Of a stretch of 64,000 bases of DNA, positions 25,576 to 63,819 are shown in pieces. The notes under the pieces are model-generated. The model saw nothing but the letters and a program-made list of their open reading frames with translations. It searched no databases and had not been told where the DNA came from. The DNA lies in contig JBBRDK010000007.1 in NCBI GenBank assembly GCA_038203955.1, positions 299-64,298 on the forward strand. The letters run 5' to 3'. Source of the DNA: Thermoanaerobaculia bacterium (GTDB lineage: Bacteria > Acidobacteriota > Thermoanaerobaculia > UBA5066 > Gp7-AA6). How positions within the stretch are numbered: the first letter of the stretch is position 1; each line of letters starts with the position of its first letter. The position numbers and the translations under genes are program-made.

Positions 25576-25776
25576 ATGGAAGGTCTGATGCAGGAACGAA
25601 GGAGCAAGATCGTCCGAGGCCCCCGGGGAATCCGGATCGCCCCTGCCGACCTCGAGAAGCTGCCGGAGCTCTCCAACAAGGGCTTCGCGGAGCAGCTCAA
25701 GCCGCCGAGCCCCCGGCACGAAGTGATCCGCTACTCGTCGCACGCGCGATTTCTCGCGCGCTGGAGCGCGCCGTAG
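25576..25776 (+). CDS. Small hypothetical protein (66 aa)
   Basis: MEGLMQERRSKIVRGPRGIRIAPADLEKLPELSNKGFAEQLKPPSPRHEVIRYSSHARFLARWSAP. G/C-rich third positions. A heptamer array starts 2 nt after its stop, as it does for well-supported genes. Confidence 0.4.
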   Translation: MEGLMQERRSKIVRGPRGIRIAPADLEKLPELSNKGFAEQLKPPSPRHEVIRYSSHARFLARWSAP

Positions 25777-25778
25777 AG

Positions 25779-25806
25779 TTCTCAGTTATCAGTTTTCAGT
25801 AATCAG
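25779..25806. repeat. Heptamer array TTCTCAG TTATCAG TTTTCAG TAATCAG
   Basis: Four units in register. Confidence 0.85.
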
Positions 25807-25830
25807 AAGACGCCGGGACCCGACTGGCTT

Positions 25831-25872
25831 CAACTCTCAACTCTCAACTCTCAACTCTCAACTCTCAACTCT
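25831..25872. repeat. Perfect (CAACTCT)x6 tandem array
   Basis: 42 nt with no mismatch. Ends 4 nt from the stop codon of the minus-strand gene 25877..29128. Confidence 0.95.
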
Positions 25873-25876
25873 ACCT

Positions 25877-60366: not shown

Positions 60367-60394
60367 CCGCCTCCCGCCTCCCGCCTCCCGCCTC
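60367..60394. repeat. (CCGCCTC)x3 + CCGCCCC array
   Basis: 28 nt. Ends 9 nt from the stop of the DUF503 gene. Confidence 0.9.
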
Positions 60395-60403
60395 CCGCCC
60401 CGT

Positions 60404-60691
60404 TCACACATGAATGAACTCATTGCGATAGTCCAGAATCTCGCCGTCGAGGTTCGATTGGACGAACCCGAGCACGTTCTGCAGCAGGGCGTCCAGCGGC
60501 GGCTGGTCCGGCCCGACCACAGCGACGCCCAGCTCGCACCGCTGGAGAAGATCCTGACCTCCGACCTCGGCCGCGGAGATCTCGAATTCGTGTCGAATGC
60601 GACTCTTCAGGCTCTTGACGATCATGCGTTTTTCTTTGAGACCGCGGCATCCCGGAAGGTAGAGATCGAAGACCGCGTAGGCGAGGACCAT
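60404..60691 (-). CDS. DUF503 (YlxP-like) protein
   Basis: 95 aa, MVLAYAVFDLYLPGCRGLKEKRMIVKSLKSRIRHEF. Canonical position between infB and rbfA. Confidence 0.8.
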   Translation of the reverse strand: MVLAYAVFDLYLPGCRGLKEKRMIVKSLKSRIRHEFEISAAEVGGQDLLQRCELGVAVVGPDQPPLDALLQNVLGFVQSNLDGEILDYRNEFIHV

Positions 60692-60714
60692 GGGCTGTCA
60701 GCCTGCGGCTGCCA

Positions 60715-60819
60715 GGTTCTCAGTCGTCAGTTTTCAGTCTTCAGTCTCGGGCCGGGAGAAGACGTCGAAACGCAGCCTCGCGGTCGAACTGAGAACTGAG
60801 GACTGACAACTGAAAACTC
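60715..60819. repeat. Inverted heptamer-array pair (TCAG-type 60717-60746 and CTGA-type 60787-60819) with a ~40-nt loop
   Basis: TTCTCAG TCGTCAG TTTTCAG TCTTCAG ... CTGAGAA CTGAGGA CTGACAA CTGAAAA. The right array ends at the nt before the infB stop codon. Confidence 0.9.
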
Positions 60820-63819
60820 TCACCCATTCATCACGCCGGCGACCTTTTCGACCTGGTACGCCTCGATGATGTCGCCCACCTTCACGTCCTGGTACTTCTC
60901 GAGGCCGATGCCGCACTCGAACCCCTGTTTGACCTCCGAGATGTCGTCCTTGAACCGCCGCAGGGATCCGATCTTGCCTTCGTAGATCACCCGGTTGTCG
61001 CGGAGGAGGCGCACCTTGGAGGTTCGGCTGATGGAGCCTTCGGTCACGTAGCAGCCCGCGACGATCCCGAACTTCGGCACCTTGAAGGTGTTGCGGACCT
61101 CGGCCCGGCCCTGCGCGACTTCTTTCAGGGTCGGATCGAGCAGGCCCTCCATGGCCAGCTTGATCTCGTCGGTGACGTTGTAGATGACGGTGTGCAGACG
61201 GATGTCCACCCCGGCCTTCTCGGCCTCGGTTTCCGCCTTCTTTTCCGGGCGGACGTTGAAGCCGACGATGATGGCCTTGGACGCCGAGGCGAGCAGCACG
61301 TCGTTGATGTTGATCGCGCCGACGCCGGCGTGGATGACGGACACCTTGACCTTCTCGTTGGAGAGGTTCGAGAGCGACTGGTTCAACACCTCGACCGACC
61401 CGGCGACGTCCGCCTTCAGCACGATCGAGAGGTCCTTGACGCGGCCTTCCTGGATCTTGCTGAAGAGCTGGTCGAGCGAGAACTTCGACGAGGCCGCCAT
61501 CACCTTCTCGCGATCCTTGGCTTGGCGGAACGCCACGACGGACCGCGCCTTCGCCTCGTCCTCGACTCCCTGGAAGGTGTCGCCCGCCTGAGGGAGGTCC
61601 TCGAAACCGGTGACCTCCACCGGCGTCGCGGGTCCGGCGATCTCGATCTTGACGCCGCGGTCGTCCTGCATCGAGCGAACGCGCCCGAACACGGATCCGG
61701 CGAAGAAGACGTCGCCCACCTTCAGGTTGCCGGCCTGCACGAGGACGGTCGCGAGGTTCCCGCGGCCGATCTCGCGGCGGGCCTCGAGCACCACGCCCCG
61801 GGCCTCGTCCACGACGGGCGCCTTCAGCTCCTGAAGCTCCGCGACGAGAAGGATGAGCTCGAGCAGGTGATCGATACCCTCCTTCTTCAGGGCGGAGATC
61901 TCCGCCGAGGGAACGTCCCCGCCCCAGGATTCCAGCAGCACGCCGCGGTCGGCGAGCTCTTTCTTCACGCGATCGGGGTTCGCGTTGTTCTTGTCGATTT
62001 TGTTGATGGCGACGACGATCGGGACCTTGGCCGCGCGGGCGTGGTCGATGGCCTCGATGGTCTGCGGCATGACGCCGTCGTCCGCCGCGACGACGAGCAC
62101 GACGATGTCGGTCGCCTTCGCGCCGCGCGCGCGCATCGAGGTGAACGCCTCGTGGCCGGGCGTGTCGAGGAAAACGATCGGCTTGCCGTTGGTCTCGACG
62201 CGATACGCGCCGATGTGCTGCGTGATTCCGCCCGCCTCGCCCGCGGCCACGTTGGCCTGGCGGATGGCGTCCAAGAGCGAGGTCTTCCCGTGGTCGACGT
62301 GCCCCATGACGGTGACGACCGGCGCACGAGTGACCCTCGCCGCTTCCGCGGCCTCCGCCTCGCCCGGACGCGACTGCGAGTCCGCGGCGCGAGAGAGCTC
62401 CAGCTCTTCCTCGAACGAGACGACCGCCGCCTCGGCCCCGACCTCCTTGGCGATCTGGATCGCGGTCTGCGCGTCGAGAGGCTGATTGACGGTCGCCATG
62501 ATCCCGCGCTGCATGAGCAGGCGGAGGATGTCCTTCGCGAGAACGCCGAGCTTCTCGGAGAGCTCCTTGACCGTGACGCCTTCCGACAGAAAGACGGGGC
62601 CGGTGGGCAGGGGCTTCTTGAACTCGAGCAGTTTGCCGGAATCGTGCGTGCGCGTTTCCTTCGCCGCCCGCCGCAGGGCGGACTTCGAGATCGGCCTCGC
62701 CGTCGGGACCTCTTCGCCGTCGGTCTTTTCGATCAGCGGCAGGGAGATGTCCGAGTACGTGTCTTCCTGGTAGGTGCCCACGAACTCGCGAAGATCGACT
62801 TCGTCGGCAACGGTGATCTTCGGCTTGGCTCCGCCTTTCTTGGCGTTCTTCTTCGCGTCTTCCTTGTCATCCTTCTTGCGCTTCGGCGCGGCTCGCTCCG
62901 CCGTGGCCGGCGGCGCGGTTCCGCGTCCGGCCGCGGGACCGGTCGGCCGCCCGAGCGCGGGCGCTCCCGGCCTGCCCATCGGCGCGCCGACGCGCCCGGG
63001 TCCTCCGAGCGGACGCGCGCCCGGCCCGCCCGGAGTGGGCCGGTACACGGACGGCCCTGCGGGACCCGACGGACCCATCGGCCGGCCCGGAGTCCCCGAG
63101 GCCGGACCCATCGGCCGGCTGATGGGACCTCCGGAGGGTCCCATCGGGCGGCTCGGCGCCCCCGCCGCCGGGCCCATCGGACGGCCGGCCGCGCCCGGCG
63201 GCGCCAGCGAGGGTCCTGAAGGACGCCCGGGGGCGACGGGACGCGCAGGCACGACGGGACGAGGAGGCAGGATGATCTTGCGGGGGATAGCCCTGGCCGC
63301 CGGGGCTCCCGCGGCCGAGACGGGGGCGACGCCCGGCGCCGGCGGAGCGACCGCCGCCGTGCCCGGGGCGGGCGCGGCGGGAGGGGGAGCGGCGGGAGCG
63401 GCTGCCGGCGGTGCGGCGGCGGGCGGCGAGGTCGCGGAAACGGCTTCCGGCTCCGGCTCGGCGTCGATGACGGCGGTGCGGGCCGGCTCCGCCGGCACGG
63501 CCGCCCGCGCGGCGCGCGGCTCCGGCTTCGGGCGGGGAGCGTCGACCGCCGGCTCCTCGGCGGCCCCGGGGGGCTTCTCGATGATCTTGATGCGGGAGAG
63601 CGCGCTCTTCTGCGGCCGCGGCGCGCGCGACTCGGTGTCGCGCACGATCAGCTGCTTGGGCGCGTGGGTCTTTCCCTGGAGGATCGCCAGCACGGTCGAT
63701 TCATCGAGCGCCGCCTGCGGAGACTTCACGTCGACGCCGATCGACTGCAGGAGGAAGAGAACCTCCTTGCTGCCGATCCCCATCTGCGCGGCGAGCTCCT
63801 CGACTCGGATCTTTCCCAT
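60820..63819 (-). CDS. infB: Translation initiation factor IF-2
   Basis: 999 aa. G-domain [26 protein letters not shown]. Pro/Gly-rich N-terminal region with repeated RPMGP motifs. Confidence 0.95.

Follow-up and report, generated by a model that had tools for sequence, protein, structure and literature searches.

The role of heptanucleotide repeats in bacteria has been a question since the reports of short tandemly repeated repetitive (STRR) sequences in 1990. Here we describe arrays of tandem 7-nt units that lie at gene ends in a 64,000-nt stretch of a Thermoanaerobaculia genome (Acidobacteriota; GCA_038203955.1, contig JBBRDK010000007.1, positions 299 to 64,298), referred to below as the window, and compare them with the closest systems described. 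The heptamers GGGAATC of Xanthomonas and GGGGA(C/T)T of Nostoc are intergenic, with a preference for approximately four units, and form 70-75 convergent inverted pairs; their G-rich strand is the coding strand where they lie 0-50 bp from a stop codon or overlap it, and the non-coding strand ahead of open reading frames (ORFs) (Rehm et al., 2015, PMC4692102). These repeats vary in length and sequence among close relatives, and transcriptome analysis identified no function for those of Xanthomonas (PMC4692102). TAACTGA repeats, found in Beggiatoaceae, cyanobacteria and Bacteroidetes, are forward repeats positioned just upstream of starts without a Shine-Dalgarno motif (MacGregor, 2015, PMC4679880). 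In Beggiatoa nearly all of them are direct repeats close to start codons (169 sets included a single indirect repeat), and in Flexibacter a reversed set lies just past a stop codon; cold-shock proteins (Csp), S1 or CsrA were proposed as their binders (PMC4679880). Both 2015 studies left function unsettled, one of them leaning on G-quadruplex formation. According to the account of Mrazek et al. (2007) given in PMC4679880, no class of long simple-sequence repeats (SSRs) is more abundant than the heptamers, possibly as a result of polymerase contact length; this ranking applies to many bacteria. The ribbon-helix-helix (RHH) omega/ParB system of pSM19035 requires at least four contiguous 7-bp repeats, in direct and inverted arrangements (PMC9499535). 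A literature search for such repeats in Thermoanaerobaculia found no paper.

The arrays of the window share with the Xanthomonas and Nostoc repeats their proximity to or overlap with stop codons, a fixed polarity, inverted pairing, a length of about four units and variation among relatives, and the Xanthomonas GGGAATC unit is itself present (58778-58802). They differ in phylum, in comprising at least six unit families, most of which (AGTTNTC, AGCTNTC, TTGAGAG and TTGAGCG) are not G-quadruplex-capable, and in having arms that usually span the spacer from gene edge to gene edge. Four or more G-tracts of three or more G, the quadruplex criterion, occur only in GGGAGGC and GGGAATC arrays (60367-60399 and 58778-58802), and no G-tracts were found in AGTTNTC, AGCTNTC or TTGAGNG arrays. 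NAACTGA arms of the window are nearly identical to the TAACTGA repeats and have the same orientation ahead of starts without a Shine-Dalgarno motif, and in both cases contigs frequently break at the arrays; unlike in Beggiatoa, inverted pairs and stop-proximal arms dominate here. The long (5-11 nt) SSRs surveyed by Mrazek et al. (2007) and the STRR heptamers of the cyanobacterium Calothrix, as summarized in the two 2015 papers, are sporadic in phylogenetic spread and are not contingency loci, and in those summaries the surveys gave no polarity, stop adjacency or hairpin-bracketed spacers, unlike what is seen here. Similarities extend to repetitive extragenic palindromes (REP), bacterial interspersed mosaic elements (BIME) and REP doublets forming hairpins (REPIN), which are also short extragenic repeats at gene ends, with inverted doublets that form long hairpins and genome-specific families; their co-transcription with genes we list among the shared traits. 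The arms here are tandem heptamers instead of single imperfect palindromes of 20-40 nt, however, and their spacing (7 to about 175 nt) is not conserved. As in intrinsic terminators a stem-loop lies directly downstream of the stop, but the stems are long, richer in A+T than the genome, broken every 7 nt and without a U-tract. Whereas the pSM19035 heptads share a single consensus (WATCACW) and are confined to a few promoter sites of the plasmid, dozens of chromosomal sites and many units are involved here.

All traits of the intergenic heptameric SSR class were found, namely 7-nt tandem units, non-coding excess, stop proximity with polarity, inverted pairs and variation. That the arrays are heptanucleotide SSR modules, representing a lineage-specific bloom of a known repeat class, is well supported. 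A position close to stop codons is an established trait of these repeats, extended here to another phylum. The novelty resides in the lineage, in the presence of several, mostly non-quadruplex units, and in an orthologous spacer whose heptamer-armed hairpin persists as its units change. Occurrence of the same syndrome in a distant phylum with mostly non-quadruplex units suggests that it is the 7-nt periodicity and the polarity that need explaining, not the G-tracts.

Array placement relative to stop codons

Using Tandem Repeats Finder (TRF), we detected about 30 period-7 arrays in the window, with 3-9 copies each arranged head-to-tail. A typical module has about 4-6 units over 30-40 nt, with five of the seven positions conserved per unit, and the families AGTTNTC (F1), TTGAGAG/AGTTGAG (F2), TTGAGCG (F3), AGCTNTC (F4), GGGAGGC and GGGAATC occur side by side. 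Period-7 sequence amounts to 1278 nt, of which 211 nt lie in 58 kb of coding sequence and the remainder in about 6 kb of spacer; approximately 85-90% of array bases fall within the non-coding ~10% of the window, and the same intergenic concentration is seen in relatives. Period-7 sequence reaches a density of 20 nt/kb in the window. Thermoanaerobaculia relatives range from 0 to 57 nt/kb, and 54 loci from other phyla mostly have about 0-4 nt/kb, with a few values of 5-10; no comparable excess was found for periods of 8-10 nt. The period-7 excess is a trait of this clade. A contig search for strain-level copy-number variants returned only three short contigs, with no record for DUF503, and in the two truB contigs that were aligned (L001 and L002), which come from independent short-read assemblies, the truB arrays are 100% identical to those of the window, indicating that the arrays are not assembly artefacts.

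The initial annotation of the window had placed arrays within, or 0-6 nt from, the stop codons of 13 genes, and TRF together with the raw sequence confirmed this for 13 of 13. The TGA lies within the first TTGAG unit in the wHTH-TolB gene (winged helix-turn-helix with TolB), in the ORF at 41913-43508 labelled as a membrane protein, and in the second sortilin-like gene, while infB, metG, the binding-protein gene, the CPBP gene, radC, truB and the lipoprotein gene have their own stop 0-6 nt ahead of the first unit. From 25 kb onward, an array is present at 17 of some 21 stop-side edges, as counted from the spacer listing.

We compared these positions with two null models. When arrays were placed randomly within the same spacers, 5.4 of the 18 stop-side edges in the window were expected to have an array within 6 nt, while 16 were observed (Fisher combined p 7e-8); at start-side edges, where the gap had a median of 36 nt, the count was 2 of 16 and the expectation 2.5. 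At 26 related Thermoanaerobaculia loci the same null gave 10.7 expected and 25 observed among 48 stops (p 2e-7), and 10.2 expected and 17 observed among 54 starts. In a second and stricter null, the whole block of two arms and the loop between them was moved as a single unit; in the window, the block still lay against the stop in 9 of 10 co-directional spacers (p 0.02 by sign test; combined p 7e-5), and the stop bias of the block persisted in the relatives (combined p 7e-4). Array edges are thus enriched at stops beyond random spacer placement under both nulls, in the window and in its relatives, as the initial annotation had anticipated, and since the bias survives block placement we consider the enrichment real. 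Start codons and divergent promoter regions have arrays beside them as well.

Co-directional spacers with arrays have a median length of 96.5 nt (n=50), compared to 21 nt for those without (n=237). The arrays have thus been added to spacers that are otherwise very short. The genes retain their native ends, as the terminal Pfam domains of RadC, MetG, S15, DUF5996, Zincin_1 and DUF503 stop 1-6 residues short of the stop codon. Some C-terminal tails are encoded by the arrays: RETGNGKRET...TEN in the ORF at 38848-40092 (38848-38930), ETGGGRR in truB (58866-58889) and VKR in the second sortilin-like gene (50695-50706), each followed by the stop codon. The truB tail differs in L003, a relative with 92% nucleotide identity to the window, and the ORF at 38848-40092 terminates at a TGA of the GAGAACTGA array (38829-38868). 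For annotation, this means that arrays create or extend C-terminal tails and provide stop codons.

Polarity, pairing and turnover among relatives

The initial annotation did not describe that arrays form polar inverted pairs around whole spacers, next to starts and stops alike. Among window arrays within 40 nt of a gene edge, the G+T-rich strand reads outward in 23 of 24 (p 3e-6), and for each family one strand reads 5' to 3' out of the nearest gene. Consistent with this, 6-mers common to arrays of different spacers had the same outward orientation 612 times and the opposite one 196 times (permutation p 0.0055), and pooling all loci gave 1963 same and 1018 opposite (p<0.0005). Owing to this fixed polarity, the mRNA would carry AGTTNTC, TTGAGNG or GGGAGGC past the stop and NAACTGA, CNCTCAA or GCCTCCC ahead of the start. 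A reading of the 3' arms as Rho-utilisation sites was rejected, the RNA past the stops being G-rich and not C-rich, and a universal rule of compositional polarity was likewise discarded, as it is strong in the window and absent across relatives.

Inverted pairs spanning a spacer were found at 3213/3251, 37831/37915, 43512/43596, 47081/47192, 50474/50675, 54796/54908, 60223/60367 and 60716/60785 (start positions of the arms in Table 1), and complementary inverted arms are present in about 9 of 16 array-bearing spacers, as counted from the spacer listing. The arms are 7 to about 175 nt apart and the interior sequence is not conserved. Two unrelated spacers have one and the same 31-mer, ACGCTCAACGCATAACGCTCAACGCTTAACC, at 47194-47224 and 50677-50707, and its variant units follow in the same order in both; arrays from separate loci can thus derive from each other by copying.

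When the RNA between stop and next start was folded for nine co-directional spacers, the minimum free energy structure of five was a single long, interrupted stem, with one side of its base at -3 to +2 nt relative to the stop codon and the other 1-10 nt ahead of the next start. A 3'-end structure formed by the paired arms, with the stem base touching the stop codon, is therefore plausible as a predicted fold. A GGAG, GAGG or AGGA motif precedes 2 of 20 array-preceded starts and 69 of 180 others (Fisher p 0.013), start calls being approximate in this comparison, which includes the starts at 3205, 43645, 47261, 54789, 60217 and 60691 as well as those of relatives. A terminator consensus scan returned the two nested hairpins at 54885-54904 and 47171-47186 and, inside arrays, only two weak sites; the long arm-arm stems do not have the form of an intrinsic terminator (a GC-rich stem of 5-20 bp with a U-tract), as they lack a T-run.

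Comparison with relatives was most informative for the spacer between infB and the DUF503 gene, where a period-7 score of at least 11/14 was obtained in 19 of 23 Thermoanaerobaculia loci, with the arms inverted. The units vary by genome and include TCAGTTN, TCAGCTN, GTGCGAA/GTTCNAA, ACAGTNA, CGAAAAN, GTAAGAC, AACGTNA and others. Three loci (L010, L012 and L017) are almost free of arrays elsewhere and still heptamer-armed at this junction, while in a Holophagales outgroup this position is taken by an ordinary GC hairpin. The architecture of the junction is retained as its units are exchanged. In L003, AGTTNTC of the window is replaced by AGCTNTC, and the truB and DUF503 spacers differ. A compensatory reading of the T to C and A to G differences was set aside, because they are better explained as a swap to a family that is also present in the window. 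In the DUF503-rbfA spacer of four relatives (L008, L023, L024 and L025), a REP-like element, GTCATCCCGAGCGAAGCGAGGGATCT..., is present in inverted copies instead of heptamer arrays.

Proposed explanation and alternatives

The joint explanation that we regard as the best, and hold with moderate confidence, combines three parts: the arrays belong to the heptamer SSR class, they lie against stops because of a constraint on leaders, and they form a stem-loop at the gene boundary. An arm-loop-arm block would have been added to a spacer of about 20 nt, with free sequence kept only for the leader before the next start. The 3' side would need nothing, allowing an arm to adjoin the stop or to enter a dispensable C-terminal tail by a few codons; in this, the simplest account, the stop side may be tighter since a leader has to be preserved at the start side alone. 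Both the 7-nt periodicity and the fast turnover of units could result from replication slippage and copying between loci. In an operon or read-through transcript, the two arms would pair into an interrupted stem of 25-45 bp whose base would bring the stop codon within 1-10 nt of the next start, usually one without a Shine-Dalgarno motif. Such a stem-loop might define or protect 3' ends and insulate neighbours, and initiation at the next cistron may depend on the terminating ribosome opening the stem base and unmasking the start that lacks a Shine-Dalgarno motif. A function as a gene-boundary stem-loop is our best guess, put forward as a tentative part of the explanation that is, taken on its own, less likely than not. 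Relative to the initial annotation, which proposed that the arrays are selected or inserted at gene 3' ends, the coupling to stops is real, exceeds random placement and recurs in relatives, and the proposal as a whole is partly supported, as neither of two roles that it suggested, a stop backstop and a mobile repeat targeting stop contexts, was borne out.

Several observations weigh against this explanation. Strong constraint is difficult to reconcile with the absence of, or differences in, several arrays in L003, with the region from 5 to 25 kb of the window, which is essentially without arrays (the lone site in the first 25 kb is 3213-3281), or with the roughly 7 of 16 array-bearing spacers that have no good inverted partner. 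Compositional polarity is not universal in the relatives (26 vs 22). Partner arms have identities of 0.76-0.85, compared to means of 0.84-0.87 for non-partner arms of the same family, so that there is no sign of locus-specific compensatory change; together with the copied 31-mer, this suggests that arm complementarity arises from family membership and copying and not from local compensation. The sense strand folds no more stably than the antisense strand (22 vs 28 of 50 spacers, Wilcoxon p 0.79), and no G-U asymmetry was seen in these spacers. Canonical terminators with a GC stem and T-run lie inside inter-arm loops, at 54885-54904 (-) and 47171-47186 (+), and transcripts ended there would hold the first arm only. 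Translational coupling as a general role is hard to maintain, because arrays flank convergent and divergent spacers too, in which it would be meaningless.

Alternatively, the arrays may be neutral or selfish by-products of heptamer slippage and quasi-palindrome template switching, left at gene edges by deletion bias and without function. Mrazek and colleagues reportedly proposed that a 7-nt register is favoured by the replicative polymerase. The by-product account fits the way in which arrays fill unneeded sequence and enter dispensable C-terminal tails, the folding without strand asymmetry, the lack of partner-specific covariation, the high turnover among close relatives, the patchy spread along the window and the failure of transcriptome analysis to identify a function in Xanthomonas (PMC4692102). 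It does not account well for the heptamer-armed hairpin that 19 of 23 relatives have at one and the same operon junction, the three otherwise almost array-free loci among them; symmetric slippage does not predict the polarity seen for each family, and the identical 31-mers and recurrent families imply copying or shared constraint. We consider this account rather unlikely, and the infB-DUF503 junction provides a concrete system in which function and mutational by-product can be weighed against each other.

A more far-reaching possibility, to which we give little credence, is that polar heptads, instead of being junk or G-quadruplex motifs, constitute a general gene-boundary device shared across phyla, in which a cis helix sets the stop beside the next start and a trans network is formed in addition. 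The cis helix would then permit termination-reinitiation bridged by the hairpin, or a ribosome-gated unmasking of the start. Since partner arms are no more alike than others, arms in 3' untranslated regions could pair in trans with leaders of the same family, and if true, trans pairing would amount to a genome-wide post-transcriptional network.

It is very unlikely that the blocks are mobile elements comparable to MITEs (miniature inverted-repeat transposable elements) or REPINs, with heptamer terminal inverted repeats bound by a transposase and insertion at gene ends. The constant convergent arrangement in every family, the recurrence of families at many loci, the identical 31-mer at 47194 and 50677, and the separate dispersed repeat of 70-100 nt that travels with GGGAGGC and GGGAATC arrays speak for this reading. 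Arms differ in unit number and order, however, their spacing varies from 7 to about 175 nt, and the interior is not conserved. Orthologous spacers with unrelated units in most relatives fit turnover in situ better than repeated insertion. Neither a conserved interior nor target-site duplications, the hallmarks of MITEs, were seen in the junctions and spacers read by eye, no systematic search having been run, and no transposase turned up, nor was a RAYT identified, although none was sought. The arrays also occur at starts, which speaks against a mobile repeat that targets stop contexts.

Binding of a protein to cooperative heptad sites, either in DNA (RHH omega or ParB-like) or in RNA (proteins with an oligonucleotide-binding (OB) fold such as Csp and S1, which cover approximately 7 nt), appears similarly improbable. 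Modules of about 4-6 units with five of seven positions conserved, the polarity of families, the precedent of a system that requires at least four contiguous heptads (PMC9499535) and the proposal by MacGregor of Csp, S1 or CsrA for TAACTGA (PMC4679880) are in line with it. At least six unrelated families within 64 kb, and others in each relative, would nevertheless require many specificities or a very tolerant binder, and dozens of sites per 64 kb would have to be occupied.

The initial annotation further pointed out that a 7-nt unit with a TGA closes the three frames within three units, which is arithmetically right (7 mod 3 = 1), and named an all-frame stop backstop as a possible role. Three frames were closed on at least one strand in 15 of 32 window arrays, compared to 13.7 +/- 2.8 when heptamers of matching composition were drawn at random, and in 24 of 64 arrays of the relatives, compared to 25.0. 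Past the stop, the sense strand had all frames closed in 4 of 16 arrays of the window and in 5 of 29 of the relatives; the antisense strand gave 5 of 16 and 7 of 29. No sense-strand stop is present in the commonest stop-adjacent families, AGTTNTC (equivalent to TCAGTTN), AGCTNTC (TCAGCTN) and GGGAGGC. TTGAG-type arrays do hold TGA in all frames, and TTGAGNG arrays provide the actual stops of the wHTH-TolB gene, the ORF at 41913-43508 and the second sortilin-like gene, because the array adjoins or enters the ORF and the unit holds TGA.

The TTGAGNG unit is widespread in metagenomes, where it often terminates long ORFs. A scan for four TTGAGNG units returned at least 120 matches on contigs of 36-69% GC, and 80 loci (L083-L162) were analyzed. 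Among the matches listed, 26 of 68 arrays end an ORF of at least 120 aa, often at their own TGA, and this sample is heterogeneous, 21 of 84 arrays lying within long ORFs of the opposite strand. The count is also confounded by the TGAs of the arrays themselves, because any ORF reading into a TGA-bearing array must end there. The arrays analyzed had at least 3.7 units. On two high-GC contigs, L090 (2219-2364) and L116 (1264-1400), the order is stop, F arm, loop, complementary arm, start; at 8706-8916 of L116 the polarity is reversed, which makes it a counter-example.

Despite the TGAs in TTGAG-type arrays, the idea that arrays were selected because three units put TGA in every frame, catching read-through or frameshifted ribosomes, is hardly tenable and largely refuted, given that stop content equals that of random heptamers, sense closure is not above antisense closure, the commonest families carry no sense-strand stop and arrays are found ahead of starts too; the all-frame TGA is a by-product and not a selected backstop.

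Feature positions, gene calls and neighbouring repeats

The positions of arrays and associated hairpins are listed in Table 1. The GGCGGNA arm at 34327-34352 is 11 nt from the stop at 34363.

Table 1. Heptamer arrays and hairpins in the window (F1, AGTTNTC; F2, TTGAGAG/AGTTGAG; F3, TTGAGCG; F4, AGCTNTC).
Position	Strand	Feature	Basis
3213-3243	+	F1 arm, left side of hairpin, 7 nt from permease start (3205)	TRF, fold
3251-3281	-	F1 arm (AGTTCTC... on the - strand), right side of hairpin, overlaps TAG of binding-protein gene (3280-3282)	
25777-25806	+	F1 array right after TAG of doubtful 72-aa ORF	
25830-25872	-	F2 (AGTTGAG) array, 6 perfect units, 4 nt past stop of sortilin-like 1 (25877-25879)	
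31443-31480	+	F2 array; TGA of wHTH-TolB (31435-31437) within degenerate first unit	
31506-31525	-	G-rich GGGAGGC-type array adjoining stop of molybdopterin-domain gene (31526)	
34254-34352		G-rich arm 34254-34276 (+) and GGCGGNA arm 34327-34352 (-), flanking one dispersed-repeat copy	
36701-36724	-	GGCGGAA-type array adjoining stop at 36725	
37831-37859	+	F3 (TTGAGCG-type) arm, divergent spacer, 41 nt from start of - strand gene (37789)	
37915-37979	-	F2+F3 arm, 50 nt ahead of CPBP start (38030); inverted partner of 37831-37859	
38829-38868	+	F1 array spanning 17-nt gap of convergent genes, begins at CPBP TAG (38828-38830)	
38893-38922	-	(GGAAACG)4 within 3' end of ORF 38848-40092, coding for tail RETGNGKRET	
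43512-43544	+	F3 arm; TGA of ORF 41913-43508 within degenerate first unit	
43596-43627	-	F3 arm, inverted partner of 43512-43544, 17 nt ahead of start at 43645	
47081-47129	+	F2 arm, 3 nt past radC TAA	
47171-47186	+	Terminator-like hairpin and T-run, in loop between radC-metG arms	
47192-47255	-	F3+F2 arm, 5 nt ahead of metG GTG (47261)	
49241-49281	+	F4 (AGCTNTC) array, first base directly after metG TAG	
50474-50503	+	F3 arm, 4-7 nt past stop of Zincin_1 gene (50466)	
50675-50706	-	F3 arm holding stop and last 3-4 codons (VKR, stop) of sortilin-like 2	
53790-53858	+	F3+F2 array without inverted partner, 17 nt from start of sortilin-like 2 (53772), 37 nt from DUF5996 stop	
54796-54838	+	F1 arm, 6 nt from DUF5996 start (54789)	
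54885-54904	-	Canonical intrinsic terminator, 8-bp GC stem and T-run, in inter-arm loop	
54908-54943	-	F1 arm, 4 nt past stop of Gly-zipper lipoprotein gene (54948-54950)	
58778-58822	+	(GGGAATC)3 and (GGGAAAC)2 array, after a dispersed-repeat copy	
58840-58865	-	F4 (AGCTATC) array, 2 nt past truB TGA	
58869-58889	-	(GGGAGGC)3 within last truB codons, tail ETGGGRR, stop	
60223-60243	+	GGCAGGC-type arm, 5 nt from rbfA start (60217)	
60367-60399	-	(GGGAGGC)4.7 arm, G-quadruplex-capable, 4 nt past DUF503 stop (60404)	
60716-60748	+	F1 arm, 24 nt from DUF503 start (60691)	
60785-60819	-	F1 arm, begins 1 nt past infB TGA (60820-60822)	

The window has a G+C content of approximately 68% and comes from a metagenome-assembled genome of a soil-type acidobacterium, placed in Thermoanaerobaculia by TruB and its neighbouring genes; its nearest record, 'Acidobacteria bacterium MAG7', is 96% identical in TruB and about 92% identical at the nucleotide level. 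Genes were called with a codon-usage model and 20 of them were compared with Pfam. The gene labels of the initial annotation were mostly correct, with Pfam support for the NMT1-type binding protein, both sortilin/BNR proteins, the wHTH-TolB protein (Trans_reg_C and PD40), Rce1/CPBP, RadC, MetG, TruB and IF-2. The ORFs at 38848-40092 and 41913-43508 have strong coding scores, while their labels as metalloprotease and membrane protein found no Pfam match. For the small ORF at 25558-25776 (72 aa) the stop position was right and the gene itself is doubtful, given its weak coding score and the absence of a Pfam match. When the whole window was compared with Rfam 15 at the gathering score, tRNA-Asp alone passed, and the truB-rpsO spacer (58590-58870) had no Rfam match at E<=1.

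A dispersed intergenic repeat of approximately 70-100 nt is present in four copies, at 14789-14891 (+), 50501-50603 (+), 58687-58789 (+) and 34272-34325 (reverse complement). It has the invariant core CGGGAGCCGAGCGAC..ACGGGAGCGAGACGGCCGCGGTACTCCGCGGTCAACTAGATCGG, with GGCGGGA-type heptamers ahead and GGGAATC-type heptamers behind, and no Rfam match. The short-read contigs L001 and L002 end exactly within it, and the repeat adjoining arrays thus breaks short-read assemblies.

Two coding tandem repeats, of 24/48 nt near the N-terminus of sortilin-like 1 (28917-29031) and of 33 nt in the N-terminal region of infB (63066-63197), are unrelated to the heptamers. Finally, stretches with 73-77% identity and an offset of 1577 nt were observed in two adjacent genes (4394-4640 vs 5971-6217, and 4801-4878 vs 6378-6455), which are probably tandem paralogues of a transporter component.

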